The translations under genes and the position numbers were made by a program. This document shows, in pieces, positions 10,696 through 43,508 of a stretch of DNA of 64,000 nt. Source of the stretch: Blasia pusilla (taxonomy: Eukaryota); NCBI GenBank assembly GCA_050084515.1, contig CM114271.1:24242001-24306000 (forward strand), given 5' to 3'. Each line of letters starts with the position of its first letter. The stretch's first letter is position 1. The notes under the pieces were generated by a model, which did no database searches, was not told where the DNA came from, and saw only the letters and a program-made list of their open reading frames with translations.

Positions 10696-10713
10696 ATTTT
10701 GCTCCATGTACAA

Positions 10714-12162: not shown

Positions 12163-12870
12163 ATAGCTTTGATAAGCTTACATCCTTTTCATCTTCCTTT
12201 TTTCTCTATGGGTGAATCAAGGTGATAACTCCGTTTACATATTTTCATTCATGAAGATATTGATGAGGTATTAAAGATTTACGTGTAGGTATGAACATGC
12301 ATGTTTGTACCCATATATGGAGAGTCATGCCCAGGGCGCTTGAGAACTTGGTCATTCCAAAATATCAAGACATATTGAGGTATGTCACAATTCATAGAGG
12401 CTATTGATTGAAGATCCAAAGGGTCCATTAGGAAAATAAGATCTATTTATTTGCATCATACAACATCAATGACATTGGATGTCACAATAGGGCACAAAAT
12501 TTTAAGAGTGCATGAGGTTTTTTCATCCAACGTTCTTTTATTAGAGATATGTGATGATACAGTTTGGAAGGATCATGTTCATAACTACATGCCATGTGTC
12601 ACATCTGAGTAGCCGATAGGCCGAGATCTATCGTGGATAGGGCGTAGGAGCCAACGGACTATATTGAGTGTAACTTTGTCCCACTGTGTTGGATGAGGTT
12701 GAGGATAGGTCCATTGTGTCAGGAAAGTCGTTTCTCGAAACCTTCATGTTGAGGTCTTTCACAGTCGGGTGACTTGTTGACCAGGTCACCCGCCCTTGGT
12801 AACTGTGCGCGCAGGTTACCAAGAGGAGGGCTATTTTTAGAGGAAGAGCCTTTTGGCTCTTTCCCACCCC

Positions 12871-12877
12871 TATATAA
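12871..12877 (+). promoter_or_regulatory. Candidate TATA box of A1
   Basis: CCCC-TATATAA-GAGAGG about 275 bp inside the 5' terminus. Motif match only. Confidence 0.4.
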
Positions 12878-14949
12878 GAGAGGAAGATGGCTTTCCTAAG
12901 CCATCTTTCTCATGTTGGGCTGTTGGAGCACCTCTCTTGTATGTGTGTGAGATAGGACTAGGGTGCTAGCGTCCGGATTCCTTGATAGCACAGGGTGGAC
13001 GAGACTCGATATGTCGATGTGGATTGAGGAGTGGAGTTTTAGGCCGGGTGTGCCATTTTTACTACTCTTTATTTTTACATGAGAAAGATGTCAGGGGGCT
13101 GGTGGAAATTCATTGTTTGTAGGTAGGCAAGCGAGATGCCTCAGTGGGGAGCCCCTGGAGACGCGTGTGTGGCATTTTGGGTGTTGTTTTCTGTTTGGAA
13201 GATTGTGCGTAGGAGTGCTGCTCATTTTTTTCAGAATTTTGGGGTAGTGGATTAGAGTAGAGTAGCATCAGAGTGGCGGACAGGGTGCTCGAGTGTAGCA
13301 CAGAGTGTAGCATTGACGGGAGAACGGCCCATGTCGAGAAAGGAGGGCTTTGCCTTGCAGTCGCCGGGGGGTTGTTAAGTAAAGATGGCTAGCTAGGTCG
13401 CGGCCGGTCTAGGGTTAGGTCACGGGCGAGGGACCGGAGGACCACGGAGTCGGGAGCCAAGGGTCGCGAGGTAGCAAACAGGCAGACGAGATGAGAGAAG
13501 AAGCCGTGTGGCAATAAGGGGGGGCAGCGCACTGGGTCGCGTGCCCACATGCTGATGGTCAAGATCCAGCAGCAAGGCAAAGTATGCCGAAGCCGGGCAG
13601 CTGCATAGGGCAGCGGGCCTGAACGGGGTCCGAAGGAGTTGAGGACGCACAAGGGAATCCACAAGCTAGGGCGCCGGGCTACGGGAGTAGTAGCCGGAAG
13701 CTAAGAGTGTGAAGCTGGGGTTAGGGGCACAACCGCACAGGACTACGTGCCCTCCACGGGCCCCGTAGGCCCAAGGCCGCGGTAGAGAGAGGGTCGCGGG
13801 AGTTGAGGAGCTCCTAAGGTTGAGGAAGGAGGGGGTGGAAGGAGTCATTATGACTCCAAAGATAGAGGAAGAGGCATGGGCAGGTATGCCCGCATAGGGC
13901 TCCGTGCCCTAGAGCCAAGCTGTAGGCGCGCAGGGTTCCGGAAGGAGTGAAGTAGGAAGGTTGTGCCATAGGGACGCGAGCTATCCCAGTCAAGCAGAAG
14001 GACGCAGTTGGGGAGGCCACAGGCCCTGCATTTAGGCCCCTCCCTTGCATTTAAGTCTGGGAAGGAGAAGGAAGGGTCACGGCTCCATAGGGAGCCGCGC
14101 TAGGCAAGTGTAGTAGGGACGGGGTTAGTCGGAGGCAGAAGCCACATCGTGCGTACGTGGACACGGTTGACTCGCATGCGTGGTAGCCAGGATAACTACA
14201 TAGAGATCAGATGTGGTTGGTGGCATACATGGTTGAGCCACTTACTATGTTGAAGTTTGGACGTAGTTGATTCGGGTAACATGGTCTCAGGTCATGGGGT
14301 TGTGAGTCATCACGTGATTTGAGGATACTTTATCGACTAGTGATGAGATTGTGATCCCTGCCGAGAGTGTTTCAACGGAGTGGTAGTGCTGGAGACACAT
14401 GCACTAATGCCGATGGGTAGTCTGCATCTGTTGACACGTAGGATCGACGTGTTGGTCGAGGAGAGTGTCCTGTTGCGGAGGTTGTCATAACACATGGAAG
14501 AGTGCATGTTGAAGATGCGAGTTGGAGGGCGTGATGAGGTTACCCATTCGAGTCCCTTTTCCCGCACTTGTCGTATGTGATTGAGAGTGTTGGGTATCGG
14601 TTAGTAGCTGGTGCTGGGTGGGTGTAGTGATGGTGATGAGTGTAGATTCTGTTCATGTGTAGCATGTTGGTGGATATACGGCGGTTGCCGCGTAGGGGTC
14701 GCATGTATGAACCGAGAGTGTCGCTAGGTTAGGTGAGTCATTTGGGAGGCTCATGGTGAGCCCAAGTGTTGAGTGTGCGTGAGGCCGGGTATGTCATCAC
14801 GGGATTGATGTTAGCATAGGTGAGCTAGTGAGGAGTGTGGGAGACTCTCGATGAGTCTGAGTGCTTGAGTGGATGAGACAGGGTTTTCATCACCGCGTTC
14901 TTCCAGGGTTTGGAAGAATGGGGTAGTGCTAGCAGTGGTAGTGGTGTGA

Positions 14950-17282
14950 CACGGAGTGGAGTGAGATACCGAGGGCTTACCAGTGAGGAGCTACCTCGAC
15001 ATCCATCCGTGGCTGGATCGTCATCACTAGACACTGGGTTTGGTGATGAGATCGCAGATAGAGATAGTAGTACTTGGTAGGAGATGGACAACATGGGCCA
15101 TCGGGGCATGAGTCGTTTCTCGGGTGCAATGGGCACCATCGACTTAGATGATTTTATCCAAGAGTTTGACACGTGGTGCGACTTCCAGGAGATACAGACC
15201 CCGACACGATTCAACCCTTTCATGGCATGGAAGGGGTTGTTCCAACACTTGGAGGGTCCTCCGATGGATGACTACATGGAGTTTTGATCACTATATTCAG
15301 TAGAGATCAATGCTTGGAGGATGTATTGGGCTCTAGGGTATGTGTCCACTAGTGGTCGCGAGGCATATGATGGGATTGTGAGAGGAAAGAGACCCACACC
15401 ATCATCCCGACGACTAGATGGAGAGAAGAGCAGTGAGACATGCGATGTGGCAAAGACCTCTAGTGGTAGAAGGCCACCCAGCTTCAGCCCCACAGTGGAG
15501 TTCTTCCGACAGTTGGGGAAGAGCTACCACGGCGTACCCACCGACAAGCTGAAGAGTCTACAGTATTTTCAGCAATGATCAGGTGAGAGTCTGAGAGAGG
15601 CATTCACACGCATGAGGAGGCTGATCATTGCTACGTATGGAGTGATCGAGGCGCGGTCGATCGACCCAAAAGATTGGTCTGACGGGTTACGGACCAAGAA
15701 CTCTGAGAGGAGAGTCCGAGATGCTATGCTGATTCACACAGCGAAGCCCACATTGAAGGTGGTCTTTGAGTTGTATGAGCGTATTGAGCTCAACATGAGT
15801 GAGGAGCAGGTAGTGACCGCTAGATTTTCTCGAGAGTCGACGGGTCCACGAGCGACGGTGATCCCACAGGTGCCATAGCAAGCACCAGTACCACGGGAGC
15901 GGGCCGGTGTGCCTAGAGAGCAGGGCGGATACCGTGAGCCTATGAGGCAACGACCCGTACCTACATATGTTGCCCAGCAGGGACCGATGTGGTCTTGTCG
16001 GACGTGTGGAGGGGCCCATAGGCAGAGAGACTGCCCACAGCATGGGAGAGGACCACCAATGCCTCCGATTGCTCAGGAGCCATAGAGGATGGCCCCACCA
16101 CATCACCAGTGTGAATATTGCCACAGATATGGTCACACTAGGGATAGATGTTTTGACCTTCGCCGAGGGGCACGTCCGAAGGTAGGCCGAGGGCCTGGGG
16201 GTGGTCGTCTTGGAGGAGGTCGGGTAGTCCTTCCTGGACGTGGTGGTAGAGGACCACCACTAGCCACAAGAGATGGAACAGGAGCACTAGAGCTGGCACT
16301 TCTCTCACGCAGCGATCAGTTGGAGCAGAGGATTGTTGCCATGACGATGATGCAGCTTAGGGAAGGCACGGAGCTGCGAGCAGCTAGTGTGACTCCACCT
16401 TCTACCTCTTACCCTGGCCTAGGTGAGGATATCGCCAGTATGGGGTTTATGTGTAGTGTATCCCAGGTTGAGGTAGCTGCAGTGGTGACTCGGGGCGCTG
16501 CGAGAGGCACCGAGCTACCGAGAGGTGGAGTTGAGATTGACCCACCAGAGGGGACCAATGGGTGGCAAGCCAGGGTTCCACAGTCATTCACATTGTCGGA
16601 GGCACTACACACACCATCGATGGTGCCTCGACGACCAACGGTGCCTACAACTCAGGAACCTACATCGACGTCACGAGGAGTTGGAGTGACAACTCCTATG
16701 CCGGCTCGAGCGGAGTCAGTGTCGACCATAGTGTTGGAGGTGGCCACCAGAGTGAGTCAGACTCCACTATTTTCTGCCATAGAGTTGGCGATGTTGGGAG
16801 TTGGACCAAATGAGGTGTTCCGGCTGGCCGCCATGTTGTGTGAGCGTGGAGAGATGACTGCTTCTTGTTCAGAGGTAGTTGAGGAGGTGGTGGACTTGCC
16901 CTCAGAGCCGGTGCTCGGGACGTTCCCCACAGAGTCATGGCATGTGGCGGTGGCAAAGTTGGTAGATATGCCAGCTCGACCGGCCATAGAGCGAGCAGTG
17001 GTGACACATGGAATAGTGTAACTGGATAACCGAGCTGGAGTATTTTCTTGGTTAGTCTGATGAGGATAGTATACCACCCGCAGCACGTCCTTCTTGATTC
17101 GGGAGCGCAACCCTTGATGTTAGGGAAGGCGGCGTGTTTAGCGTTGGGGTTACGGAAGGTTGATATTGAGCCTTGTCCCTTCCAGATACAGACCTTGATT
17201 GGGGGCGTGTCACCCACGAAGTATATGGCTCGACATGAGATAGTTTCAGAGTCCAACCAGAGCATGAGACGGATAGTGCTAT
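14950..17282 (+). pseudogene. gag: A1 gag (two CCHC knuckles, RGG-rich tract) and aspartic protease, disrupted
   Basis: ORFs 15084-15287, 15612-15878 and 16089-17021. Knuckles CRTCGGAHRQRDC and CEYCHRYGHTRDRC; protease VLLDSGAQPL at ~17088. Confidence 0.85.
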
Positions 17283-18284
17283 TGTCGCGACCCTCATGAC
17301 CAAACAAGTGCCAAGCGGAACATCGGAACATTAGCGGGCTCACGCTAAGATGGTTTGCGCGTTGGAGTTGTCTCAAAGAGGAGACAAGATACGAGACGTG
17401 AACGAGGAGTCGCGTTTCAGGTGTTATGGTCATGACTGAGAAACCTGGACCAAACGAGGAATGAGACTTGAAAGAAGTCGAGTCTAGGAAGTGGGTTGCC
17501 AAAGGAAGATCCGGATTTGGAACGCCACTAGCGTTTGAGAGTTTCCGACTGTATTTATGGCCATAACTTTTAGCGCCAAGATGCATTTGGAGTAAATAAG
17601 GGTGCGTTGGAAAGCTTATGGAGAGCCGGTCCAAACGCACCAAAGATCGCTGCAAACGCATAAGCAGAGGCCGAGATACGACCCAAAAACGACTGTAAGT
17701 GGAGGCGGGTTGAGGGCCACAATGAAGGGCCCGACCCTCTTTTCCCAAAGGGGAGGGGTTATTGGAGAACCCCAGAAGTACTAGTAAGGGGGAAGGTCTC
17801 CGAGAGGGCTTGGAACCCAAACCCCACTTTGGGCGCCGCGGGGCGGCTCAAGGGCATGGAACGGAACGCGAGTTTGGGTGTTGGGTTGGAAAACCCGCAC
17901 CAAGTCCATTGAGGCGATTTTAGACGTCCCTCTTGGATTTCACGCTGCGACTCAATTACTTGGGTCTCGGTTCGGAACTCACACGAGGACCGTTGAACAA
18001 TTGGGATTGCTAGGCGTGCAAGTGCCGTTTCAGATCCCTGGACTAACCAGGAAGTCTGTTCCAAGTCTTGAAGGACTTGCCATGTTTTGGAAGCTAGGAA
18101 CTAAGAAAGGTTGAGCTTGATGAGACGCCGAGTCGAGGACTCGGTGGGTTAGAACGCCGGTTGGCCCAGAACCGACTAACGAGAGTGCGTGTTTGGATGC
18201 AGATCGGTGATGAGTTCGTGACTCCTCGAACGCACGCGCTTCGCAACACTAAAGATTGACGTTCAACGAGAGTAGGGCGCGACA
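17283..18284 (+). repeat. 5' LTR of chromovirus B1 (~1 kb)
   Basis: TGTCGCG...CGCGACA ends, followed by a PBS. Inverted homolog at 27981-28981. Confidence 0.92.
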
Positions 18285-18286
18285 AG

Positions 18287-18297
18287 TGGTATCGAGC
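18287..18297 (+). other. Primer-binding site (tRNA-iMet), B1
   Basis: TGGTATC-GAGC 2 nt after the LTR (canonical TGGTATCAGAGC with 1 nt missing). Confidence 0.85.
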
Positions 18298-18433
18298 TAA
18301 TCCTTGGTGGCGAGAACTTGGGGTCGTGGGATCAGCCGGACGCTTGGGAAATTTCAAGGTAGCGGCTAGACTCGGGCGCTTTCGAGGAGGGACGCAAGAA
18401 ACGAGGAGGAGATCTGAGTGAGTTGACTTGGAA

Positions 18434-21400
18434 ATGGCGATCGAGGGAGAACAACCCAAGAAGCGCCAAATCAAGCGGCGAGAACCAAGAGAGGAACCAA
18501 TGCCGGACCGTGAAGCTATGGTGGAGACGGAGACACCCGAAGAAGAGTGAACGCCATTCGTGAGGCGTTCGAAGCGCAACTCCTTCGCGGGGCGGTGGAC
18601 CCAAACTCGGGAAAGGGCGGAGTCGAGCCAGGCGTTGGACTTGTTGAAGGTGTTGGTGGAGCAGATGTCCCAAAGCAAAGCAAGCGGATTGCGAGTTAGA
18701 GGCCACTCGAAACCGGGTGGGGGCAAAAGCTGCAAGGCAACCGCCACGCCATTCATGGGAGTGGGGTGCTCATGAAAGTGAAGGATTTTTACGGAATCGA
18801 ATCTGATTTTCGAGCGCGCAGAGGGTCGCGAAAGCGAGGACAAGGTGACGGTAGTCGTTACTTTCTGAAGGATCATGCTCTACAATGGTGGACAGCTCAA
18901 CGAGAGGAATATCTGGGCGGCGAGTCACCTCTGAGTTGGGAGGAGTTCAAGGAGTTCAAGGAGGTGATTGGGGATCGGTTCACTCCGGAGTACCAAGGGT
19001 TGCGCGACACGGTGGAATGCGTGCGGATGCGGCAGAGTGGTTCCTTAAGCGCGTATGTGAGGGAGTTTAGTGCGAAACTGACTTCTAGTCCGAAGATGGA
19101 TGAGCACGCAAAGAAGGCTATCTTCATTAGCGGACTCAAGCCGAGCGCTGAGAAGGCCCTTTACCGAATGCCGATGTTACCAGAGACCTACGCGGATCTC
19201 CTGAGGCTAGCGGAGCGGATTGGGGACGATGAGGTCCAAACCCAAAAACCCTTTGAGTCAAATTTTTTTTCAAAGAAGTCGAAAAATAAGGAGGCGTTCA
19301 AAAGAGGCTGGAGTGGGGGTCAGCACAAACTAGGAGAGTCGTCTGCCCTGGCAGCAAAACGAGTGGAACTTCATGCGAAGCCGAAAGGAGGACAACACTC
19401 AAAGACAGGAAACGGCAAGGTCGTATGCTACAACTGTGGCGAACCGGGGCACCTGTCGAAAGGGTGTTGGAAACCGAAGGTTAGTAATGGGAGTATGATT
19501 GCGTTTGCTGCTAAACATCTGTTGGCGGGCGATATCGAGACGTCCCTTCAAGTCACCAAGAGGACGCACAATTTGGTGTACCTAAGATTCAAGATTGCTG
19601 GTCGCGATGTGTTGTTGCTCGTGGATACAGGTGCTTCGCACTCCTTCCTAAGCCCAAGAATCGTGAAGGAACTGGGGCTGTCTACCTCTAAGGCGGACGA
19701 GCCCATTCGAGTGGGATTTGCAGGAGGCAAGTCTCATCGGACTTCTGATTTGGTCTTGGGTTTGACAGTAGGATGCGGGGTATTCGAGTTGTAGGAGAAT
19801 TTCAATGTATGCGAAATGGACGGCATTGACGGAGTTTTGGGGAATACATTCCTAGATGCGTATGAGGTGGAGTTAAGATGTAGACCATTGAGGTTGAGCG
19901 TCTTGCTAAAAGGCAAACGATTCTGAGTGCGGTTGGTCCGTGAGGTTCAGCGAAATGGAGTTGGTGAACTCGATCACAAGGAGGAGCATGGCGAGTTGGA
20001 GGATGGATTTCTCTGCTTGATGAGACAAGTGGAGGAGGCTACAAGCGATATGCAGAGATCATGACACCGCTTCAAGGGAGTCCCAGAACCACTCGGAAGT
20101 GGTCAAGGAGTTTGAGGATGTCTTGACAAATGAGCTTCGATTGAATTTCCGCCGCAGAGAGCCGTAGATCATAAGATAGAGATCATACCGGTTCCCAACC
20201 GCCTTCAAAAGCACCATATAGGTTGAATCGGGAGGAACTTCTTGAGTTGAAAAAGCGATTAAGTGAGCTCTTGGAAAAGGGTTACATTAGGACTAGCAAG
20301 TCACCTTATGGAGCACTGTTCTCTTTGTAAAGAAGAAGGATGGAAAGATGAGGTGTGTGTTGATTACCGTGCCTTGAACAAAGTGACGGTTCGAACAATT
20401 ATCCTCTTCCGAGGATAGATGATCTCTTTGATAGTGGCGGCAGCGCAAGATATTTCAGTAGGATTGACTTGAAGTCGAGGATATTGATTCGGATTGCCGA
20501 GGCGGATGTGGAGAAGATTGCGTGCGTGGGGCGAGATACGGTTCCTTTGAGTTTGTAGTGATGCCTTTCGGTCTATGTAACGCGCCTCCAACGTTCACCA
20601 CATTGATGAACTCCATTTTTCACAAGGAAATGGATGAGTATGTTATCATCTATATCGATGACATACTTATCTATTCGAAGTCACTAGAGGAGCACGTTCG
20701 ACATGTGAGAGCGGTCTTGTCTAAGATAAGGGCAAATCAGTTGTATGCGAATGTAGAGAAGAGCGAATTAGGTTTGAGTAAGATCAAATTCTTGGGTCAC
20801 GTGGTCAGTGCAGATGGTGTCAGTCCAGACATGGAAAAGGTAAAGGCGATTTCCGAGTGGGAACCCCCATCCATTGTAAAGGGGATGAGGAGGTTCATAG
20901 GTGCGGTGCAATTTTATCGTACTTATGTGAAAAACTTTTGGGAATTGTGAGACCTCTCACGGATTGGACAACAAAGTTTGCCAACATGACTTGGACCCAG
21001 GAAGTTAATGAGGCATTCAACCGAGTGAAGCAGATTCTATCGTAGGAACCAGTGTTAAAGCTGCCGGAGTTTGACAAACCGTTCGAAGTGCATACCGATG
21101 CTAGTGATTTCGCGGTTGCAGGAATGCAAGAAGGGAGACCGGTGGCATATGAGAGCAAGAAGCTTAGCGACACTGAAAGGAGATGGCCTACTCACGAGAA
21201 AGAGTTGTTCGCGGTGGTACATTGCTTGAGGAAGTGGCGGCATTATCTAGGGCTCCACAGGACTCGAGTATTCACCGATAATATATCACTCAAGTATTTT
21301 GAGACCCAGGATCGAGTGACACCGAAACAACTGCGGTGGCATGATACCTTGGCGCTAATGGATGTTGAGTTGATTCATAAGCCAGGTAAAGATAATGTGA

Positions 21401-23190
21401 TTCCAAATGCGTTAAGTCGCAAGGAGGAACACATGTCGTCGACGACACAGGTCTTGAGAGCAATGTCCCCTAAGGAAACAGATCTGGAAAGAAGGATTCG
21501 TGAAGGATATATGAAGGATGCTCAAGCGAGGGAATACGAGGAAGTTGAAGCGGGGTGAGAAGGTGGCCAACATAAGTTTGAGGCACGGTCTACTAAGGTT
21601 CAAACAGTAGGATCTATGTAGGGCGAGGCGGGATGCGAACCAAGGTGTTAGCGGAATGTCACGACGGACCCTTGGCGAGGACATAAAGGAGAGAAATCTA
21701 TGCTATTTGTTATGTAAAGCGGTTCTTTTGGCCCAACATGAAAGAGGATGTTGCTCAATATGTGAAGACTGTGTGACCTGCCAAGCAAATAGAGTCTCTT
21801 ATGGTAAGCAGGGCTTTTTGCATCCCTTGCCGATCCCGAAGGACCCTTGCAAAGTGTGAGTATGGATTTCATCACGAGTCTTCGGAATCTGAGGGATACA
21901 ACGCTATACTTGTGATTGTTGATCGGTTTAGCAAGTTGGCGAGATTCGTGCGCGACGGTGGATTCAGAACGGCGTATCTGACAGCGCAACTATTCCTCGA
22001 TAGCTGGTGGCGTGCTCATGGTTTGCCGAGGAGCATTGTTTCAGATCGGGATCAAAGTTTATCGGTGCATTCAGGAAGCACTTGTTGAGAAGGTTTAAGA
22101 CCAAGCTGAGTTTGATGACGGCTTTCCACCTGACGGATGGATGGCCGGCCTGGCGGATGTCTCTTCCCATGTTGGCAAGACCTCTTCATTCGAGAGCTAC
22201 AGAGGAATGCCGACAACCTCGTAAGTCATCTTTTATCCCGGAGCAGCGAGAGTCATCGGGCGTGAATCGATGGATACCACACCCGTTGTGTGGGAATTAG
22301 GGTGTTCGGGTGTTAGATCTCTTTGGAGGATTAGCACGATTGGATTGGGTGCATCAAGTACCTTTATGTGGAGAGAGTGGGCGACGAGTATCATTATGTC
22401 ATGGCAAGATTGGGAGGTATCTGAGTTGTTGCGGTATCAACCTGATGTACACTCGTCATCCAAGCAACTAACCTATCAAATAAGCGGTGAGCATGGCGGA
22501 ATCTTTGCGCTTCGACAACTCGAATTTGCGAATCGGAGAATCTCCGTTTCTCCTGGCAAATGGACGAGAGCCATAAGGGCCTCTTGATCTAGCCCTTCGA
22601 AGGGTACTACATTGGCACGAACCACGACAAGCAACGGCGAAGGTTTGTTGGTAGAGATGCGAGAACGGAAAGAGCGCGCGAGGCGAAGTCTTGCAAAGGC
22701 TCAAATGAGGTACGTTAAGCATGCTAACAAGAGTCGGCGCCAAGTACGATTCCAAGTTGGAGAACAAGTGTGGTTGAGTGTAAAGAATCTCACTCTTCCG
22801 AAAGAGTTGTCTGCGAAGGTATGCCCGCCAAGTATCTTTGGACCCTATGTGGTTGTGGCAAACCCGTTTGAGGATGTGTATACGTTGAGTCTGCCGGACG
22901 AGTTCAAGATTCACCCGACCTTTCATGTGTCATTGTTGAAGAAATATCTTCAAGATAATGGACGTTCGAACGGAGACAGTGGTGAGACCGCACCGGTCAT
23001 CGTAAATGAAGAGCCGGAGTTTGAGGTGGAGACCATCTTACGTTCGGCGTCGGGCCAACAAGTATGAATACTTGGTAAAATGGAAGGCTACCATGTGAAG
23101 GAGGCGACTTGGATTATGGAGGCGGATTTGGAACACGCGCAAGAGTTGTTGCGTGACTTCAAGCGAACACAAGCGAAGCACATACGTTAG
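18434..23190 (+). pseudogene. pol: B1 chromovirus (Ty3/Gypsy) gag-pol with chromodomain; many frameshifts, no 3' LTR
   Basis: [68 protein letters not shown]; chromodomain EFEVETIL..EYLVKW..EATW at ~23015-23160. Confidence 0.92.
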
Positions 23191-23199
23191 TACGAGGAG

Positions 23200-27978: not shown

Positions 27979-27980
27979 CT

Positions 27981-32819: not shown

Positions 32820-32957
32820 AGTACATCAAGGAAAAACCCACCTTCCAGTAGGAACAACATCCATACGTGGAGTTAAACACATCATGTGCCCACCCCTAGA
32901 ATACCGATCACACACCAACATACAGGCTGTGTTACCAACACACCCACACAACATGCA
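32820..32957 (-). pseudogene. A2 C-terminal PHD finger
   Basis: CMLCGCVGNTACMLVCDRYSRGGHMMCLTPRMDVVPTGRWVFP*C; C4HC3 spacing with a few decayed ligands. Confidence 0.85.
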
Positions 32958-35900
32958 CCTCAAGCTAGCACGTATCATGGCTAAGCTTGGGTCAACAGTA
33001 CCATCCACATTTGGAAGATGACATGGCGCACAATTACGCACATGGTCCTTTCAAACAACTCCATCACGACCCTCCAACATGAGAACTCCATAAGCGAACA
33101 CCTCGCGCACTCATAAAATAGTGCGGCCTGCCGTCACATCCAACGTTATCGGTGCAATCTTCTGCAAATAGACATAGTCCCCCACATGGAACCTACGAAT
33201 CGATGGTTGATAACCTCCACCCCGAATGGTTGCATACCGCAACGTATCCCTGTGTTGAGCAATGGCAAGATTCTCAAAGGCTGTTGGCATAACTCTCTGA
33301 AAGAGCTCTGCCCGTTGAGAACACACTCTCATCCACATCTCTTCCTCATCAAGGTTCACCACCTCACTAGACTCCCGACGAATTGCTGTTGGCAAGTCTC
33401 GATCTCGGCCGTATAAAAGAAAATAAGGTGAGAAGGAAGCCAAGGATGCTTGGCGATTGAACCTATACCCCATGGCAACTGAATATCCCAGTCTCCAAGA
33501 TATCCCTTCTGTAGGCCATACTTGCGCAATGCCCTCTTCACCGTCTGAACCACACGCTCAGCCAAACCATCCGCCTCTGGATGATCTCGAGACATGGTCC
33601 GATGATCAATCAACGCCTTGTCACACAAGACCTGAAACTCACCCTGAAACTATGTACCTTGGCCGGTCAGCACTTCAGCTGGTGCACCAAAATGACTAAG
33701 CACTCTATCAAGAAACGCATACGCCCATCCCTCATTTGCCTTTTCAGGTAATGCCACCAACTCAATCCACTTGGAGAAGTGCTCCACCATCACCAACACT
33801 AAACGGTAACGATCCCGCAAAGTCCACACTCCAATGGTAACCCAACCCCATAATAGGCAAGGGGTATAACTGTGGTGTATGGGCATTGAATGATGCCCTC
33901 ACCTGGTCACAAACCATACAACATGACACCAACTGTTGCACCTGAGTATGCATGCCACGCCACCAATACTGACCAAGGAGTAAGCTATACGTACGCTTTA
34001 CCCCAAAATGTCCCAACTCCTCATGGGCATGTCGCACAATGCGCTCTCTCTGAGCCAAATACGCCACCACTCGTACTCTATTATTCTCCCACACATGGAG
34101 AATATGTGTTCCCTCCAATCGATACCTCTTAGCACGTTGAAGAACACGGTCTCGCTCCTTGGTACTCACTATGCCTGGCACCCTACTGGTCCGTAGGAAC
34201 TCCAACACCAACGCATCATCATGAATATCACGCTGATCCGTACCACCATCTCCAACCTTAGGATCGAAGGTGGCCATCTACCCCTCGACTAGAGTAAGAT
34301 ATCATGTGGTCCTCCATACTAGAGTCCATCCCTAACCAACATAAAAAGGCGGATGCATGCCAACTTGGCACCATCTCCTCATCAACCTCGCCATGCCATC
34401 TAGCCCCAATTGTATCCTCTTGGCTAATACATTGATTCCTACTCAAACCATCAGCATCAAGGTTGGCAACTCCAGGTCTATGTACCACCTGGAAGTCATA
34501 CTCCTGTAAGATAAGAGCCCACCGTGCAAGCTTCCATGTAAGCTTGTCAGACTCCATCAACCACTTGAGCGGCTGGTGATCAGTAACAAGGGTAAATTGT
34601 GTGCCAAACAAGTAACACCTAAAGTGTGCCCCCACCCACACTCTTGCCAAGCACTCTCCCCTCATATGAACTATAGCGCAACTCCATTTGCATTATTCGA
34701 ACGACTTGCATAGGCCACCAAAAACTCCATGTGCTCATCATCATGTTGTGTCAACACCGCTCCAAGTCCCAACCTACTCCAATCGTGTGTAATCTGAAAT
34801 GGGCGCCCTCGATAGGTCTCCTCTAGATAGGCGCCGCCACCAAGCTGGGCCTTAAGCTCCACAAAAGCTCTCTCTGATCATCTCCCAAAGTGCCACTCTT
34901 GATCTGATTTCAGAAATTGGTTCAAAGGCTTTGCCATAGCACTAAATCCCTTCACATACCTCCGATAGTAGTTCGCCAATCCCATGAATGCTCGAACTCT
35001 ACTCACATCTACGGACGCGGAATAAGTGCAATAGCCTCCACCTTTGCTTGCTGAACTCCCAAACCACTTGGATAGATCACGTGACCCAAGTACTCAACAT
35101 CCTCATGGAAGAACTTACACTTTCCTCGATGCAAACGTAGACCATGAGCTTTCAACCGCTCAAACACCATCTGCAAATGTATCGATGCTCCTCCACCCAT
35201 TCTTGAACACCAAGATATCATCAATGTAACACCGAACAAAATTCAACCCTGCTAGGATCCTGTCCATCACTTTCTGAAACTCGGCAAGTGCATTCTTCAA
35301 CCCAAAGGGTAAGAATTTCCACTGGTACAAACAATCCTTGCCATGAGAGTTGACACCCCAAAATGTTGTCTTGGCCTTGTCACTCTCCGAATCGGCAATT
35401 GATGGTATCTCGCCCGAAGATCCAAAACTGAAAATCTTTGCCTGTCCCACCACATCAAAGATCTCTCAGTGTAGGCATGGCATACCTATCGGCCTTGGTT
35501 TGCCGATTGATAGGACGGTAATCTCCACACATCCGCCTATCCGTGTAGTTGATATGCATATCCTTTTTAGTAGGCATGACAGTGGTTGATGCATACTCTC
35601 CATGCGACAACTCCACTAATCCAGCCTCCAAAAGGTCCAACGTCCTACTCTGAATCAAGTCCCTCTCCATATCACTATATCGGTAGGGACGAGGGAAGAT
35701 TGGCGTATCACTAGCCAAATCAATTCGTATACCGGGTCCAACCAGAGCACCCAACTCCTTCATGCTAAAGGCAAAAAAACTCCTATAAGCACGTAGGAAC
35801 TGTGTCAAGCGTCGTTTCTCACCTCCCGTAAGCTTGGGCCCAAGTAATGGCTCCCAAGTCTCCTCCACTGGCACACTAGAGGGAGAGGACAATGCCATTG
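32958..35900 (-). pseudogene. pol: A2 RT - RNase H - integrase
   Basis: RRMCGDYRPIN, LPFGLKNA..VRCYIDDILVF, TDHQPLKWL..ADGLSR, HEELGHFG..CMVC, SVDFAG, ADGLAERVV. Confidence 0.92.
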
Positions 35901-36139
35901 GCTGCTACGCAACCCCCTCACAAGATGGTACACCCTTAGCTACACCATCATCTGAGCAAATAACTCCTCCACCAACATGAGCAACCAACTCCACATGCCC
36001 AGCCATTACATCCCATTTACTCCAAGGATGCAAAATACTACTCTCCTCGCCCCCAGCTGATGCCTCTACCGTCCCGGTAGCCATCAAGCTCTTTACAAGG
36101 GGTGGAAGACCCACAGACATAGTCCGAAGTCGACGCTGC

Positions 36140-37100
36140 TCAGCCATACCAAGACTCAAAATCCAAGTCAAACAATTCAGGTCCATGGCCTGACCCAACA
36201 CAAGACGTCGTGAAGCCTCAGAAATAGAAGCAACCGCTGTCACACCATTAGCAAATCACATCGCAAGCTCTCTCTCATCAACGTTAGGCTCCACCAATTG
36301 TCGCACATGAGAATCCCATACAAGCCCAGGACCATCTTCCCTGTATGCATGTGAAGAGGGAAAACTCACAAATGTGGATAGTGCCATCTTAGGCTGGCCC
36401 ACACAGTTCACCACTTCCATGGGTGACCGATCAATAACCTCACCACCTGAGAAAGTCGCCCAGTATCCAAGATACTATCCACAGTAAGGCAAGGATCCCA
36501 CTGCACTACATCATATGCTCGACGTAGAACCTCCCTAGGCAACAAGTTTGTCCACAACAAGCGTGGACGATGTGCATGCGAGCCAACTCACGCTGCATCC
36601 AACAACACCGCTGGTCCAATCCAAGACCGCACCTCATGAACACTCGCGATCATCCGGGTCCGAGTGTCACCCAATAATGGAACATTCTCTAGAATGTAAG
36701 CTAGAGCACGTGCTTGATGAACCTGAAGATGTCGTAACACCCGTAACATCTCCCAAAACAATCGAGACCTAGGGTTGTGTAATCCCTCACCACAACCAGC
36801 ATGTGTATGACCCTGACATGGCCATCCAGCAATCACCAAATCCACAAGACCAACCCTCTCAAGGTCCTGTGCCCCCAACAATGCAATGTGTGACGGCAAA
36901 GCACGTTGGTACCCACGAATAGCTGATGGCGGCAACAACTCAGGATATCTCCGCATCAACTGACCAATATGTTGGGATGAGACTCTTTGGGCCGTCTCAT
37001 CTCGCTCCACATACACGTATCTCCGCACAGGAATACCGGCCTGCAACACTGCAGCCAAACCAATGCTAATCCCACCAAAGAGATCTAACACACAAATGCC
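36140..37100 (-). pseudogene. A2 DNMT3-like C5 cytosine methyltransferase domain (full motif set, with stops and frameshifts downstream of motif VI)
   Basis: I VLDLFGGISIG; II YVERD; IV DLVIAGWPCQ (36810-36840); RLFWEMLRVL; VI ILENV (36681-36695); VIII DAA*VGSHAHRPRLLWTNL; X RRLVLGQAMDLNCLTWIL. Confidence 0.93.
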
Positions 37101-37689
37101 CTCCGGCGGATACTGCCATACAATGGGTGTAGTATCCAAAGGGGATAACCCAACTGGACCAAAAGTAGGAGTCCTCCGTGGGGCCTCCTCTTCCTCGTGA
37201 GGTATAACAGCCTCACACCAAGCCTCCTGCACTAGGCGATCAACCTCATGCCATAGTGCACCACCTGAACTCCAAAGTGGCACATCCAACGATGAGGATG
37301 CCACTGCTGTAAAAATAGGGACCTCCTTTACCTCCTCATGCACAGGAGAATCCATAACATAAACATTACCCTAAAAAAAGTCTCATGGCCAAGTGACTAC
37401 TCCACTAAAACCAGCCACAGATGCTAACACTGTTGGGGAAGACCCTCCTGGTCGAGCCCCATAAATAAATCTCACATGAACTTGGCTCATACGTCCATCC
37501 CCGGACTGCCAACCAGGTCTAAAAGATGTTGTCTCAGTCCAGTAATCCATCTGAAAACCCATCGAGTACAATACTGCTCCTCCAACTAGTACATCATACG
37601 TCTCGGCTGATGTGACTACCGCAGATACTCCCAACCGGGAGCTATCAATCGCATGATCTGGTCTCAACTGTACAAAAAACTTCTCCCGT

Positions 37690-38263
37690 TGTCGTATAGT
37701 AAAATCAACCAATGTGTAAACTCCTTCGTCATTAAGTGTTAGATAGAGTTTCATTAGTATTAAGTATATTGGCTTAGAAAAAGGAGATTCTTATGTTTAA
37801 ACCTCTTTATGATGCCTCTTTTATGCGGGCCCAACTTTAGGAAAAGGAGGTAATAAATAAAAGATGACTTTGTAAAAGTAAAGTAGTTGCTTTAATGAAA
37901 AACAAAAGTAGTCTTGGTTGGTGGCTAGGTTAGTTGGGATAATTTGGAAAATATCATGTGGGTAAAAGAGGATATTTTGGAAGAGATAAGAGGAAATCTA
38001 CTTGTGTCAAAATGTGATTGGCTAAGCCTTGAGAGGAAGCCATGTGGCACAAGATAAGATAAGCTCTATTTCGTACTCTTGTGGATCCCTTGTGAGTATA
38101 TAAAGAGGAGGGACCTTCAAGGGTTCATCACCTTCTATTCCACATTTTGAGTCTCTCGCGTCTCTCTTGAGTGTATGGCTTTGGGATTGCTTGCTCTTCC
38201 AATGAGAGTGGATCACCCCTCTTGGGAGAGTAACTTGACCATAGTCTAACCTTGAGAGAGATT

Positions 38264-38306
<43 letters not shown>

Positions 38307-38997
38307 TGTGTGTGTGGAGATGAGAGGTTTGTCACCTTAGAGGAGTTTAGTCATACTGAAATAGAAATAGCGGATGTTTTGGCTTGTTACTTTCCCAATG
38401 AGAGTGGATTACCCTCTTGGGAGAATAACTCCGCCAAAACCCATTCTTGAGGAGAGTAGAGAATGTCTGGCAAGCATGGATAGGGGCGGAGCACGAGTTG
38501 TGCCCGACTTTCCTTTCCTCAATCCATACCATGTCAAGGTACTCTTTGTAGATAGGCACTGGTTCACTCGGTATTTAGTTTATCACTTTGGGGAGGCGTT
38601 CATGAACCGAGTCATGCAATCTCCAACTCCGGTAATCCTTCCTATCGTCACATATGGAAGGACATGGGATTGTACTTTGTATGTCCTTATATAGTGATCC
38701 ATGGATGTCAATAGGCCTGCTCAAGTAGGGTTTAACACTAGTTGTGCTATCTTCCTCGTGTACAAGCGTAAAATAGTCTATAGGGATTTTATAGTTAGGA
38801 ATTTCGGGGTCCGATGTTACGAAGAAGTGATCGCCTCGGCACTTCCATTTGTGATACCTGTCGTGAGAGAATGGAGAGTGTACATCATAATTTTGTATTG
38901 AAAAAGGAGAACTTGTTAGAGAGTTCACCTTGCATCGACCGTATCTACCGCAGCTAGAAGGCCCGCCCTTGCTCGAAGAAAGGCTCTCGACACAACA
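37690..38997 (+). mobile_element. 1.3-kb solo-LTR-like insertion
   Basis: TGTCGTA...CACAACA ends and a 4-bp TSD CCGT. Removal restores A2 FMTR-EKFFVQL. Internal TATATAAA at ~38097. Confidence 0.8.
38266..38315. repeat. (GT)n microsatellite
   Basis: About 25 GT units with one interruption. Confidence 0.97.
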
Positions 38998-41900
38998 CCG
39001 TGTCATGAATTGAGACCTATCATTGGCTCCTCCAAGTGATTTTTTAATATGGAATGGGCAAGGCTCAAGCTCTGACCTCCGAATACCCAAACCAATACAT
39101 GCCGCCTTTCCCAACATCAAAGGTTGGGCACCAGAGTCTAACAAGACTCTATCTGGTCTATACACCTGTCTTGTAGGACTCACCAATTGGAATACCCCAC
39201 TCCGATTGTCTAACATATATACACCAGGTGTAAGCCTCTCACGATCAATGGCTGGCCGGGCTGGTAATGCATCCATCTTCGCCGGTGTTGCCTGCCAAAT
39301 AGGACTGGTACTCAATGCTACACCTGACATAGAGGGTCGCTCCACCGCAACACCCTCATCCACCTCAGCACGTGTAGCACTAACACCCCCATGTTCATAC
39401 AATGTGGCTGATAGCTAAAATACAGGAGCTAAGTCAGCTCTTAAAGCCATCAGCTCCATGGCCGAAAACAATGGGGATCCCAACACTGAAGTTGCCATCC
39501 GCAATACTGCACTAGATGCTGCATCCGTGTCTACTACACACAATGTAGATGCCTCAATCCCCACTGTCGGCTCAATAGGCTGCGTAGGAACCATGGATGG
39601 AGTCCTAAGCACCTCAGACAACAAGAATGACTTGGGAAGCCTAGCCTGCCTCCCGGCCTCACCCCTCTGTGGGTCCAACTCCACAGTAGCACCACGTGGC
39701 TCTGACGCTCGAGTGGCTCCTCTCATAACTGCAGCCGATGCCTCAACCTGTGTTGCACTCGCCATATAAGAGAGATCATCCCCTCCATAAGAGGTGGAAG
39801 CCCCTGCTCCCGAACCTGATCTATGTTGAATACTAGCCATAGTAGCCAACTTCTGCTCCAACTGCTCAATCCTGGCAGCCATAGCTGACTCTGTCGTAGT
39901 GGTAGGGGTAGCCACCGTAGGCTCTCCAACCATTGGTCCACCTCTACCATCTCTACCACCTCGGCCTCTCAGAGCTACTCCACCACGGCCGCGGCCTGAT
40001 CTCAACTCTGGATGAAGATGAAAGCAACGCTCTCGAGGATGACCTGGTCTACCGCAATGATCACACTGAGTTGGGGCCGACTGAGGCCCATCCTCCAAAG
40101 TCCGTTTCCCATCCTCTTGGGAACAAAACTTCCTAACATGATCACCTCCATATGTCCAACATGATTGTCCTTGTTGCGGGGTAGCAAATGAAGGCAATGG
40201 TCTTTGCGCAAGTGTCCCTCTAGGACCTGACTGAGGTCGTGTGTACCCCCCACGACTCCCACTACTACGAGACTGTGAGGTGGGTTGCTGAACACGAGAA
40301 GTAGTAGTTGTATCCCTACTGAATGCGGATGTCACCACTCTCTCCTTCACCATGTTAAGCTCAATCTTCTCAGATAGAGCAAACACATGGGTCAATGTGG
40401 GTGAATTATCACTCATAAGAGTAGCATCACGTACCCTGCGGCGCAACTCTCTGTCCAAGATCCCATACCAAAATTGGACTGCCTGAGCCTCAATCACACC
40501 CTGGGTAACTGAAATCAAGCGTCGCATATGAGTGTATGCCTCACGAAGACTCTCACCAGTCTTTCACTCAAATTCTTGAAGACTCCTTAACTTCTCTGTC
40601 TTCACTCCCTGATAGTTCTTCTTCAACCTCTTGAAGAACTCGCAATCAAGGCTAACGATGGTGGGGCACTAGTACCTCCACTAGTACCCCCACTGGTCCC
40701 TCCATGGGTACCTCCACTGGTACCCCCACTCCGGCTCGTACTCGTACCACTCAACGTCGGGCTGGCTGGCATAGTAGGAGCACTACTACCAATACCACCA
40801 TGGGTGATAGACACATAGCCTGGAGACCAATATTGCCTCCACGCCTCAATCTCAGCAACATGGTCCTTCCTAAACTCATGGTAATCATCCATGGGTGGTC
40901 CCTCCAAGTGCTAAAACAACCCCTTCCAAGCCAAGAAGGGTGTAAACAACGTGGCGTTCCGCAACATCTGCATATCACACCATGTATCAAACTCCTACAT
41001 GAAGTCCTCCAACTCAATGGTGCCCACTGCACCCGAGTATCGTCGTGGGCCCTTCATGGCCCCATATATCATGTCCATGTCCCAAATCAATGGAGCTGCA
41101 ACACTCGATAACAACGTAGAAGACTCGGTGTTTGGAACACCCTCGTCCTCCTCTTCATCAACCGTTGGAAGTGGAAAAGGTAGCTGATACCTAAATCCAC
41201 TCTGTGTGAAACCACCACTGTCCGCACCACGGTCCCCAACCAGACCACCAGACAGCTCCGTGATGACCAACGCCGATGCCGCACCACCACCAAATTATCA
41301 CCACTAAGTAACCAAGTGATGTCGATGTCGCTATACTATTCTAGCTCTACTAGCTATGGGTGTAGGCAACCTAACCTGTCATCACCACAAGAAGCCTCCC
41401 ACGGTCTACTGGTCATCACTCCAGCCTCACTACCGGTAGCACACACGAGTAACACTACTCTGGAAATCAGCGTCAACCCTAACAATGGGCGCGCAAGCAA
41501 GAAGCAACGATGGAGGGGATCCAAACACAGGAAGTCCAACAACAACCCTCCAATCGCAAATGGAAATCAAGGTAACACAATCCACCAAACGTGGCGCCCC
41601 CTGAATCCACAGAACCCATCACACAATTCTAACGCAATAGCTACTCCGCCGCGGGTCGATGACGTGCTAGTCGGACTCACAGCACTTGAAAATATCCCCT
41701 GCATGGAGAGGCTACACCGTACTATGCGCTAGAGGTACATCAACCAAAAACCTGAGATGCATAAAGCGCCTAACACATCTCCGAACAGCACCAAATGAGC
41801 TACAACAGTGTGTACACCGGCATAGTTAAGAACTCACCAATTAAGCGTCTTCCAGGCAGAATAGCCCAAAGATGGATGACCAGTTATGCAACACTCAAAT

Positions 41901-42750
41901 CACAAATCCTGCAAAAACTGCCTCACGCCCAAGCAAGCAAGCTTGCTTGCTTGCTCCTTGCTCCTTACTCCGCCTCTCACGCCCACTCGCCCCGAGCTAC
42001 CACGAGTTGCCTCGAAACCTCAAAACGCCGAGACATGCCCCTATCGCCATGCTTCGCTATGGAGAGAGGCCCAACCAGGGCGCCCCCAATGGGATAGGCG
42101 TCTCCAACAATGAACGAGTCACCAACCAACCATCCCCTCCGATCCGCTGTCCACCATAGCCCAGACCTTGAGCTAGTCCGCAAAATTTTGATCAGCAATT
42201 ACTTCACAAATCCTTGACCAAAATTGAATCTGTTACGACCAGAATTCAATTGACCACCATAGCTATCTCTCCACAAAAAAAGCTACAACCGAGCTCTGCA
42301 CTCTGAGCTAAAAATCAGACAAACTTGATGTCCATACACCTCCAGAATCGCAAACCGACAAAGGGTTCGCCCGATTTCATGCACGATAATCCGCAACGCT
42401 CCACACACTCGAGCAGATAGCTTCACATGAGATCACAATACAAGTAGCAACAAGAACCTCTCACCCGATCTGGATGAACTTCAACAGAGTTTCCGCACTC
42501 CAAGCTCTCCACATCAGAAAACCGTCGAACACGAACCAAAATCTTCAATCCTTGATAACTTCCAAATCCCTTGACGAAATCTTCCAACCTCCAACCTAAG
42601 AGCGGGCCCTACTAGAAAAGTCACCCTCAACTCAGTAACCCCCAACCCTATGTATGAAATCTCATCTCTACCTAGACACTGCGGCCCTACATAAGGTATG
42701 GCCTCTACTAGCACACTATACTCTACGACATAATCCGTATAGTCATGACA

Positions 42751-43056
42751 ACGATCGTACGTAAGCGCGAGGTATTATCGACCGGAGTCCTCATGTTGGA
42801 GGGACGGGATGGTATGGTTTGGAAGGATAATGTGTGCAATTGTGCGCCATGTCATTTTCGGAACGTAGATGGGACGGTGGATCCGAGCTTGGCAGTGGTA
42901 CCTGCAGGCTTGCGATATATGTTGTGTGGATCTGCGAGGGGTGCAGCCACCATGTTGGTATGCGATGGTTGTTCTCGAGGGTGGCATATGTCACGTATGA
43001 CCTCCCCTCTTTATGTGGTTCCTATGGGACGATGGATGTGTCCGAGATATGTATAG
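42751..43056 (+). pseudogene. A1 integrase C-terminus and PHD finger
   Basis: TIVRKREV..WKDNVCNCAPCH..YMLCGSARGAATMLVCDGCSRGWHMSRMTSPLYVVPMGRWMCPRY. Confidence 0.88.
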
Positions 43057-43270
43057 GGTATTAGGTCATGTCAGAGAGATGTGATATTTTCTATCTGGAG
43101 TTGGAGGAATCCAACTGCCAGCTAGGGGAGCCGTTGTGTGATCTCCATGTATATGTATGAGTTGATTTTTGTACATGCATGGATCGACCCGTGTGTGGGG
43201 AAGATCGGTGTTGTGTGGTGTAGATGTGACCAGCAATGTATGTTGTGTAGCGATATGTATGCGCACGACA

Positions 43271-43506: not shown

Positions 43507-43508
43507 AT

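Follow-up and report, generated by a model that had tools for sequence, protein, structure and literature searches.

A bryophyte Ty3/Gypsy lineage with a DNMT3-like domain carries its long terminal repeat divided between the two ends of the element

The window, i.e. the whole stretch of 64000 nucleotides from Blasia pusilla that was analysed (assembly GCA_050084515.1, contig CM114271.1, positions 24,242,001 to 24,306,000), holds nested copies of one retrotransposon family. A1 lies on the forward strand at 12597–43270, with two large nested blocks inside it, and A2 (10213 bp) lies on the reverse strand at 32538–42750 within the A1 integrase; both have the form A-coding-B, A and B being the repeat segments described below. 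A1 begins with TGTCACATCT at 12597 and ends with GCGCACGACA at 43270, and its host is D, another copy of the same family, the sequence of which is continuous across A1 (12320–12597 matches 33297–33021, and 43271–43432 matches 33025–32867). On the forward strand, the edges of A2 read GCGCATGA|TGTCGTGC at 32538 and GTCATGACA|ACGA at 42750, and the A1 integrase reading frame restarts beyond A2 at 42751. The exact boundaries and 4-bp TSDs (target-site duplications) claimed for both insertions in an earlier note on this DNA are borne out, as host sequence resumes past each. Flanks of 4 bp were found in all five elements with both ends known, all of which run TGTCA...GACA, the pairs being exact for A1 (CATG at 12593–12596 and again at 43271–43274), for a short unit at 46654–47281 (TTTG/TTTG) and for the metagenome locus L018 (AAGG/AAGG), and differing for A2 (ATGA/ACGA, forward strand) and a second unit at 44530–45174 (CATC/CACC).

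The coding content of A1 is distributed over three forward-strand segments, namely gag with two CCHC knuckles and the protease start (LLDSGA) at 15102–17279, the C-terminal half of the DNMT domain followed by RT (reverse transcriptase), RNase H and integrase (H2C2 plus DDE core) at 28982–32537, and the integrase C-terminus with a PHD finger (about 42922–43047) at 42751–43120. A2 contributes a DNMT3-like C5 methyltransferase ORF on the reverse strand (36588–37370) with the motifs DLFGGISIG, GWPCQG and ENV, together with a 1.3-kb insertion (37686–38997) that is missing from other copies, in which A2 coordinate 3753 is joined to 5062 (read joint 37685→38998). A Pfam search of six-frame stretches, with stop codons read as X, gave matches to DNMT (PF00145), RVT_1, RNase H, H2C2, rve and PHD in A2, A1 and L018, and no tyrosine recombinase (Phage_integrase) in the six frames of L018 or the forward frames of A2 and A1. 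No Pfam family was matched for gag or protease in the scanned A1 and A2 frames, and these were assigned from translations by eye, by conserved motifs and by homology to A2 and P0005, a protein of Marchantia. The best PDB matches were Ty3 RT for RT-RNase H (8e-62) and Ty3 Gag-Pol for the integrase (1.5e-19), and all 25 PDB matches of P0005 were to DNMT3A, 3B or 3C. Marchantia, Calypogeia and Sphagnum supply the closest named proteins. A1 and A2 are old, dead copies of a bryophyte Ty3/Gypsy lineage of the order gag-PR-DNMT3-RT-RH-INT-PHD; every inspected copy is degenerate, and the two A copies of L018 differ by 8%. Judged by the usual marks of Ty3/Gypsy elements, the family has the domain order PR-RT-RNase H-integrase and TG...CA ends with a TSD within 4–6 bp, and two identical terminal LTRs are absent from A1, A2 and L018, the last of which is arranged A...B-A-B.

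The termini of A1 and A2 are TGTCA...GCACGACA. Self-comparison of A2 found no terminal direct repeat of at least 18 nt, the first 480 bp of A1 showed no match to its last 140 bp among the matches listed, and inverted identity between element ends is confined to TGTC(A/G)/GACA (4–5 bp); as they stand, both elements are therefore without LTRs and share only TGTC/GACA between their ends, as had been reported. It had also been claimed that the 3′ end is conserved whereas the 5′ regions differ. The first part stands, since GCACGACA occurs at three sites in the window, at 43263 (+), 32538 (−) and 45167 (+), each a family 3′ end; at least three matches also occurred in nine of 100 shuffles, so that the bare count is weak evidence and the value of the motif lies in its location at element ends. 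The second part needs correcting, the 5′ regions being not wholly unrelated: all copies share the start TGTCA(C/T), the first ~170 nt of A2 can be aligned with relatives (poorly beyond ~170), and the first 480 bp of A1 are present again in the unit at 46654–47281.

This reverse-strand unit (628 bp) consists of the first 480 bp plus the last ~140 bp of A1, and the forward-strand unit at 44530–45174 (645 bp) runs TGTCACGTCT...GCACGACA; both are stand-alone A.B units. Two readings of these ~620-bp units, as solo LTRs with a 30-kb insertion and as plain internal-deletion derivatives, were rejected given the A-coding-B-A-B layout of L018. A further copy, A0, is cut by the window start (214–2104, +) and passes from gag through a purine-rich tract into B, i.e. 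an internal-deletion form ending in B only. The block at 17280–28981 is foreign to the family and is made up of two inverted chromovirus copies (+, 17280–23665; −, 28981–23666) that are 92% alike and have the outer ends TGTCGCGACC, with an A-type DNMT N-terminal fragment inside the integrase of each. The inverted 92% pair (17283–22485/28981–23666) was considered as A1/A2 and rejected, since it belongs to this chromovirus block, which sits within A1 and is unrelated to the family.

A1 and A2 look repeat-less because the long terminal repeat is split across their two ends; the family is not repeat-less, and its LTR is divided between them. The fullest genomic form is A-PBS-coding-PPT-B-GC-A-B (PBS, primer-binding site; PPT, polypurine tract), i.e. 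split direct repeats, and its better-preserved carriers are L018 (complete, with its TSD), L007 and D in the window, loci numbered with L being metagenome loci. Within L018, 1676–2017 matches 10350–10691 (92%) and 10238–10350 matches 10693–10805 (94%), and in L007 6132–6438 matches 14879–15185 (94%), where the contig ends after B-GC-A. These two independent sites carry the identical junction GACA|GC|TGTCATGACC; the A|B junction has one or two additional nucleotides in L018 and zero in the A1 type. D is older and heavily decayed, with its left part at 7282–12596 (+) and its right part at 43271–44133 (+), the latter comprising a PHD remnant, a G-rich tract and a B-nn-A-B end, in which a short B (about 43465–43506) and AT (43507–43508) are followed by an A copy starting TATCACATT at 43509 and a B ending GCATGACA at 44133. 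The 5′ end of D was not found, and 2104–7282 gave no Pfam or tblastx signal. Among nine 3′ ends surveyed, five are B-only, three are full and one is rearranged, the B-only end thus being commoner than the full one, and B upstream of A was seen at none of eight independent 5′ ends (A1, A2 and six metagenome sites, L017 and L018 being taken as one site). When 14 of the more distant DNMT-bearing loci (from L022–L043) were compared with themselves, neither an LTR nor a split-repeat pattern was clear; only assembly-type overlaps or tandem repeats were present in L033, L036 and L043.

Reads from the same species contain these junctions. The joint of 42750/1/2 to 32538 with GC between (B|GC|A) was present in 96 and 123 reads of the RNA runs X22 and X23 respectively, and DNA run X1 gave one contig each for 42750 and 42751. 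For a second subfamily, the B|A junction (45174→44529/44530) was recovered in DNA contigs from both X1 and X2, as well as in 13 and 12 RNA reads. The RNA of the family is sense-strand, and nearly all RNA reads at the end of B run on into GC-A. RNA reads span the A|B junction too, with read-through or stand-alone A.B units as their possible source.

Segment A of A1 measures 480 bp (12597–13076, +), its end being set by the A|B junction, i.e. by 57 contig ends at 43133. The TATA candidate previously placed ~275 bp inside the 5′ end was found there (TATATA at 12871, position 275 of A1), inside A, and a promoter so placed requires that the 5′ end be regenerated. Directly after A lies a putative self-priming PBS, ACATGAGAAAGATG (13077–13090, +), a perfect complement of the arm CATCTTTCTCATGT at 12902–12915, so that A ends exactly where a stretch of 14–17 nt begins that is complementary to sequence ~27–31 nt after the TATA box. 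This complementarity extends over 14 nt in A1, 17 nt in L018 and L013 and 10 nt in L007, and none of 500 shuffles reached 14 or 17 nt. The 17-nt arms of L018 and L013 are unlike those of A1 in sequence and hold the same relative positions, i.e. the putative site co-varies between subfamilies. In A2 no complementary arms were found and the primer site is not recognizable. The absence of a tRNA-iMet PBS, as noted earlier, was confirmed; no tRNA-type PBS was seen, and the self-complementary putative primer site stands in its place.

The opposite edge of the repeat is marked by polypurine tracts. Segment B of A1 (138 bp, 43133–43270, +), with GCACGACA as its 3′ letters, is preceded by GCTAGGGGAG at 43121–43130 (+), a tract at the same position in L018, L007, L012 and L011, and in all four of these PPT-adjacent B copies AGGGGGGCGAG stands immediately before B. 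Segment B of A2 (32538–32642, −) is preceded, in element orientation, by TTAGGGGGGCGAG at 32643–32655, and B likewise follows a polypurine tract in A0. With the PPT and the putative self-primer at the repeat edges, reverse transcription would define an ordinary LTR (B+A), and priming and strand transfer look canonical, in the manner of Tf1. The Tf1/sushi/Tcn1 chromoviruses have a stretch beside U5 complementary to the predicted RNA 5′ end and no tRNA-type PBS (Neumann et al. 2019, PMC6317226). To judge by the arms described above, the A1/A2 family may prime itself in a like manner. Those chromoviruses are described as having ordinary LTRs and a chromodomain (PMC6317226), whereas permuted repeats, a PHD finger and a DNMT domain mark the present family.

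A layout of this kind was already noted in 2018, and the family therefore belongs to a known kind. KnitGypsy-Dnmt3 of Klebsormidium nitens is described as having DIRS-type repeats, A-coding-B-A-B, together with Gypsy-typical domains (de Mendoza et al. 2018, PMC5890265), and thus resembles the A1/A2 family in both its Gypsy-type polyprotein with a DNMT3-like domain and its DIRS-like repeats. By this published description, the A1/A2 family is a Gypsy-DNMT3 of the KnitGypsy-Dnmt3 type, although from bryophytes rather than a charophyte alga; its text gives no TSD, termini, PBS/PPT placement or mechanism (PMC5890265). Our literature search found no description of the A1/A2 family in bryophytes, nor of its ends. 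A similar A1-B1-A2-B2 layout of split direct repeats, with internal repeats 3′ of the coding region, is described for PAT, Ngaro and VIPER of the DIRS order, which carry a tyrosine recombinase (Szitenberg et al. 2014, PMC4157794). The A1/A2 family differs from these in having a DDE integrase, 4-bp TSDs and TG..CA-type ends, and no tyrosine recombinase in the frames scanned. PAT, Ngaro and VIPER elements are not known to make a TSD.

We consider it fairly probable that the best explanation overall is an ordinary LTR, B-GC-A, made by self-primed reverse transcription, with the genomic copies as circular permutations. RNA would start in the 5′ A, prime itself as in Tf1 and be transcribed through B-GC-A; two-jump reverse transcription would then give a cDNA bounded on each side by the LTR B-GC-A, and the genomic copy would be a circular permutation of this cDNA, opened at the palindrome GACA-GC-TGTC. 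The further step, in which the cDNA is circularized and the integrase cuts this palindrome inside the LTR, we hold to be plausible, at slightly less than an even chance. Ligation of the cDNA ends would produce a circle, and cleavage by the DDE integrase after CA on both strands of GACA-GC-TGTC would leave two recessed CA-3′OH ends that have 2-nt overhangs and can be integrated. A single cut in a 2-LTR circle would generate A-coding-B-GC-A-B, the sole form able to replicate again; A-coding-B, as in A1 and A2, would come from a 1-LTR circle or from two cuts, and two cuts would also set A.B units free. Both of these derived forms would likewise result from later B×B or A×A recombination. Forms of the type A-B-GC-A-coding-B are also to be expected from a 2-LTR circle cut once, and the extra repeat unit is found on the 3′ side in three copies as against none of eight 5′ ends with that arrangement, which counts against this step, although such small numbers do not decide the matter. 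The integrases of foamy virus and HIV-1 reportedly cut the palindromic LTR–LTR junction of 2-LTR circles, a route said to be debated or minor. The proposed step is alike in that a CA...TG palindrome in circular DNA would be cut into integration-ready ends; there, however, the palindrome is the circle junction, whereas here it would be internal to the LTR and the route the usual one. Only tentatively, and with rather more doubt, do we extend this to the streptophyte Gypsy-DNMT3 lineage as one that normally integrates from circular cDNA opened at a CA-NN-TG palindrome inside the LTR. If true, one reaction would account for the A-coding-B-A-B replicators, the LTR-less-looking A-coding-B copies and the mini A.B units, and the split direct repeats would be convergent with those of tyrosine-recombinase retroelements.

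Alternatively, the split-repeat copy might be rebuilt within reverse transcription, as proposed for PAT and Ngaro of the DIRS order, with no integrase-cut circle; the RNA would lack the A start and the B end, and the internal B-GC-A would template both ends. We regard this as unlikely, although the layout equals that of PAT/Ngaro and that given for KnitGypsy-Dnmt3, the RNA reads cross both B|A and A|B, with some transcripts reaching the second B, and the extra units occur on the 3′ side only (three versus none). Against these points, a PPT and a co-varying putative self-primer at the repeat edges are expected from standard two-jump synthesis, the products of which are B-A LTRs rather than A...B ends, so that a trimming step at TGTC/GACA would still be required. 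Every A-coding-B and A.B insertion with a TSD would, moreover, have to be a secondary deletion.

The earlier note had proposed a truly LTR-less Gypsy-like family with non-canonical priming and end regeneration. A1 and A2 do lack terminal repeats, and five of the nine 3′ ends are B-only, but this reading is very improbable, since complete relatives have the form A-coding-B-GC-A-B, B-nn-A-B is present in them and in D, and nearly all RNA reads at the B end enter GC-A and so carry the B|GC|A junction. The repeat edges bear a PPT and a putative self-primer site, and the oddity lies not in priming or end copying but in where the integrated copy is opened. Troyka, which had been offered as an LTR-less parallel, is described as a group of animal LTR retrotransposons related to Gypsy, with 3-bp TSDs and CG..CG termini (Kojima 2025, PMC12440569); it is alike as a divergent Gypsy relative with unusual ends and differs from the present 4-bp TSDs and TG...CA ends.

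Ginger DNA transposons have a Gypsy-like integrase, TGT termini and 4-bp TSDs; their terminal inverted repeats are long (tens of bp), and they are not known to carry gag or RT. A Ginger-like cut-and-paste mobilization of a DNA copy by the integrase through the TGTC/GACA ends, also suggested previously, would suit the 4-bp TSDs, the TGT...ACA ends and the short A.B units with TSDs of their own, but the family encodes gag, protease, RT and RNase H, its terminal inverted identity is 4–5 bp only, and its sense-strand RNA has the junction expected of genomic RNA, with a PPT and putative PBS present; DNA mobilization is not needed, nothing was found in its support beyond these likenesses of the ends, and we consider it extremely unlikely. 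Equally unlikely is an origin of A1 and A2 from elements of the form LTR-coding-LTR by loss of complementary LTR parts from each. The A.B units do resemble solo LTRs and carry TSDs, but A1, A2 and L018 would each have had to undergo a pair of deletions matching exactly, and to have kept the TSDs directly at the start of A and the end of B. The earlier note named younger copies with two full LTRs as evidence against its own reading, and such copies are matched by half only: the 3′ end carries B-A-B, whereas B lies after or before A at none of the eight 5′ ends.

Split or inverted repeats are by textbook account tied to tyrosine-recombinase retroelements (DIRS), and plain LTRs with TSDs to DDE-integrase elements; in the A1/A2 family, split repeats go together with a DDE integrase and TSDs of 4 bp, and LTR finders will therefore overlook it or label it LTR-less, as the earlier note did. 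Where the PPT and the putative self-primer lie separates the ordinary from the unusual steps of the life cycle. For retroviruses, the usability of circles for integration has long been debated, and the puzzle of end regeneration here becomes a testable one, namely whether circular cDNA may be the normal substrate of a retroelement integrase. Finally, a 2019 review gives methylase-encoding transposons as absent from land plants such as tracheophytes; the window and the RNA reads together reveal transcribed DNMT3-carrying retrotransposons in a land plant.

The layout of the window was resolved by self-comparison together with translated comparison, which showed that the region is a nest of one Gypsy-type, DNMT3-carrying family (the A family) plus foreign insertions. 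The copy A1 (12597-43270, + strand), which starts with TGTCACATCT and ends with GCGCACGACA, has CATG on either side and is inserted into D, an older and strongly decayed copy of the same family, the sequence of which resumes beyond the insertion, its two parts overlapping by 4 bp in the self-comparison. The copy A2 (32538-42750, - strand; 10,213 bp) lies inside the integrase of A1, between ATGA and ACGA, and its ends in element orientation are TGTCATGACTATACGG...GATTCGCACGACA. No terminal direct repeat of at least 18 nt was found in A2, and none of the listed self-comparison matches joined the two ends of A1, which bears out the earlier note in that neither copy has terminal repeats. Its description of an element with no LTRs is true of A1 and A2, which are two derived copies, but is incomplete for the family, since D and two loci on metagenome contigs, L018 and L007, carry split repeats.

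A DNMT alignment was used to scan metagenome contigs, which yielded 80 loci, and all 80, together with the window, were probed with A and B, the two repeat segments of the family. These data show that the A family is not repeat-less. L018, a complete relative with AAGG on both sides, consists of A (1676-2017), the coding region, AGGGGGGCGAG, B (10238-10350), GC, a second A (10350-10691), one nucleotide and a second B (10693-10805), the second A and B matching the first at 92 and 94% respectively. The same B|GC|A junction was present at L007, an independent site where the second A is cut by the contig end, and D is the decayed equivalent in the window, with a G-rich tract, a short B, AT, an A copy from 43509 and B to 44133. 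Nine 3' ends could be classified: three have B-nn-A-B (L018, L007 and D), five have B only (A1, A2, L012, L011 and A0, a copy cut by the window start) and one is rearranged (L010). At the 5' side, B adjoined A in none of eight independent ends (A1, A2 and six metagenome sites, with L017 and L018 counted as one site). In addition, stand-alone A joined to B (the A.B unit) was found at 46654-47281 (-), with the target-site duplication TTTG, and at 44530-45174 (+), flanked by CATC and CACC. Flanks of 4 bp were seen in all five elements for which both ends are present; three of these pairs are perfect, and the other two show one transition each.

The edges of these repeats carry further signals. 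A polypurine tract directly precedes B in all four PPT-adjacent copies in the metagenome loci, and also in A2, A1 and A0. A TATA box lies inside A, and the end of A is the exact start of a stretch perfectly complementary to sequence 27-31 nt downstream of the TATA box. In A1 the complementary arms are 14 nt long (12902-12915 and 13077-13090), and in L018 and L013 they are 17 nt long, of a different sequence and at the same relative positions; none of 500 shuffles reached 14- or 17-nt complementarity. This arrangement is that of a putative Tf1-like self-primer, as known for Tcn1/Tf1/sushi elements, those of mosses included (PMC6317226), and would account for the missing tRNA site. With the polypurine tract and the putative self-primer placed in this way, the edges match canonical two-jump reverse transcription with an LTR of the form B-GC-A. 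Judged from the order of its segments, the genomic A-coding-B-GC-A-B would thus be LTR-coding-LTR in circularly permuted form, with GACA-GC-TGTC as the palindrome at which it is opened and with LTR end joined to LTR start.

Both junctions were found in nucleic acids of the host species when contigs of two DNA runs (X1 and X2) and raw reads of two RNA runs (X22 and X23) were mapped to 32400-47400. The B end of A2 (32538) was joined to its A start (42750-42752) in 96 reads of X22 and 123 of X23, with many start points and with GC lying between B end and A start in the 42750 joint; DNA run X1 has one contig for the 42750 joint and one for the 42751 joint. As RNA depth over the pol region is approximately 50-170 in X22/X23, most RNA reaching the B end continues into GC-A. 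The B|A junction of a second subfamily (45174 to 44529/44530) was present in DNA contigs of both X1 and X2 and in 13 and 12 RNA reads, and 80 further X23 reads extend beyond 45174 into GT followed by TGTCACGTCC. The junction of A end and B start was represented by 57 contig ends at 43133, with the consensus ...TACTACTCTTTATTTTT, and by cross-mapped joints (32644-32648 / 45047-45048) in both DNA and RNA. Mate orientation was opposite between A2 (-) and the unit at 44530 (+), which, for a stranded library of the usual kind, is consistent with sense transcription. A separate joint at 33289-34271 (15 reads in X22 and 26 in X23) skips 981 nt of the A2 integrase region, its two sides being separated by 14 other nucleotides; it was absent among the DNA contigs shown, and either a variant copy or a processed transcript may be its source.

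We infer a route in which the cDNA would become circular and integrase would cut the palindrome after CA on both strands. The two resulting CA-3'OH ends would be recessed, with overhangs of 2 nt, the form on which strand transfer normally acts, and their integration would give the 4-bp duplication. Cutting a 2-LTR circle once would yield the full form; A-coding-B would come from a 1-LTR circle or from two cuts, and two cuts would additionally release the A.B unit. In foamy virus and HIV-1, integrase has been reported to cleave palindromic circle junctions (PMC1180852, PMC1905944). Alternatively, A-coding-B and A.B may have formed later, through B x B and A x A recombination, and our data cannot separate the two sources of these forms. 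The main rival is that the ends are rebuilt in the DIRS manner while reverse transcription proceeds; it is rated lower because it leaves the polypurine tract and self-primer at the repeat edges without a role.

The coding content of A2, and of A1 in pieces, follows the Pfam order DNA_methylase, RVT_1, RNase H, Integrase_H2C2, rve and PHD, with frames read through stops. Within the scanned frames of A1 and A2, gag and protease had no Pfam match; translations read by eye and matched to P0005, a Marchantia protein of 1278 aa running gag-PR-DNMT, indicate that the Pfam-detected domains are preceded by gag, which has two CCHC knuckles, and by a protease containing LLDSGA. Among solved structures, Ty3 was closest for both RT-RNase H (8e-62) and integrase (1.5e-19, foamy-virus integrase being next), and all 25 PDB matches of P0005 were to DNMT3A, 3B or 3C. 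In L018 the integrase is of the DDE type, and no tyrosine recombinase was found in any of its six frames. Named proteins come closest at 65-69% identity, and their sources (Marchantia polymorpha, Calypogeia fissa and Sphagnum) make a bryophyte origin of the window probable. Here a land-plant retrotransposon carries the DNMT3-like methyltransferase (36588-37370, -; 28982-29400, +; 7287-7873, +), with coverage by RNA reads on what appears to be the sense strand; in a 2019 review, land plants such as tracheophytes are described as being without methylase-encoding transposons. More distant relatives (P0044, P0049, P0051, L033, L036 and L043; 28-32% identity in DNMT) have the DNMT between RNase H and integrase, not before RT, and also a PHD finger at the end. 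Some of their contigs have end overlaps or exact tandem repeats (L033, period 6556 bp; L043, 127-bp end overlap), which may be assembly cycles through repeats.

KnitGypsy-Dnmt3 was described in Klebsormidium nitens by de Mendoza et al. 2018 (PMC5890265), where the legend to Fig. 4 assigns it the repeat structure of a DIRS element and the domains of Gypsy; the main text, in the portions available, gives no termini, target-site duplication, PBS or PPT placement, or mechanism. A 2026 preprint mentions "streptophytes (Gypsy-DNMT3)", and we file the present element as a further member of this kind. In the literature searched, no description of the A family in bryophytes, or of its ends, was found. 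The comparison with Troyka drawn in the earlier note does not apply, as Troyka has LTRs (PMC12440569).

Among the foreign insertions, A1 is interrupted by an inverted, tail-to-tail pair of chromovirus copies (17280-28981), which are 92% alike, carry gag, PR, RT, RNase H and INT, have TGTCGCGACC at both outer ends and have no LTRs in either copy. Each holds an approximately 400-bp fragment of the A-family DNMT N-terminus within its integrase, directly after HPQTDGQ, and only the + copy has kept the integrase C-terminus and chromodomain (22486-23200). Approximately 1 kb is missing from A1 at this site relative to A2, and the flanks (CTAT and GTCC) form no target-site duplication; the pair may have arisen through foldback rearrangement or auto-integration, or may be a recombinant element. 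A2 contains a 1.3-kb insertion (37686-38997), including a (CA)n run, which is absent from relatives and from other copies in the same species and has RNA reads on the strand opposite to A2. MITE-like interspersed repeats of approximately 300 bp, 72-93% alike, occur at 2482-2783, 8543-8832, 10384-10695, 45372-45702 and 56687-57027 (inverted 56163-56329), one of which interrupts the pol of D at 10384-10895. A degenerate, GC-rich tandem-repeat array with units of approximately 40-110 bp lies at 60496-61290 and overlaps a 200-aa open frame.
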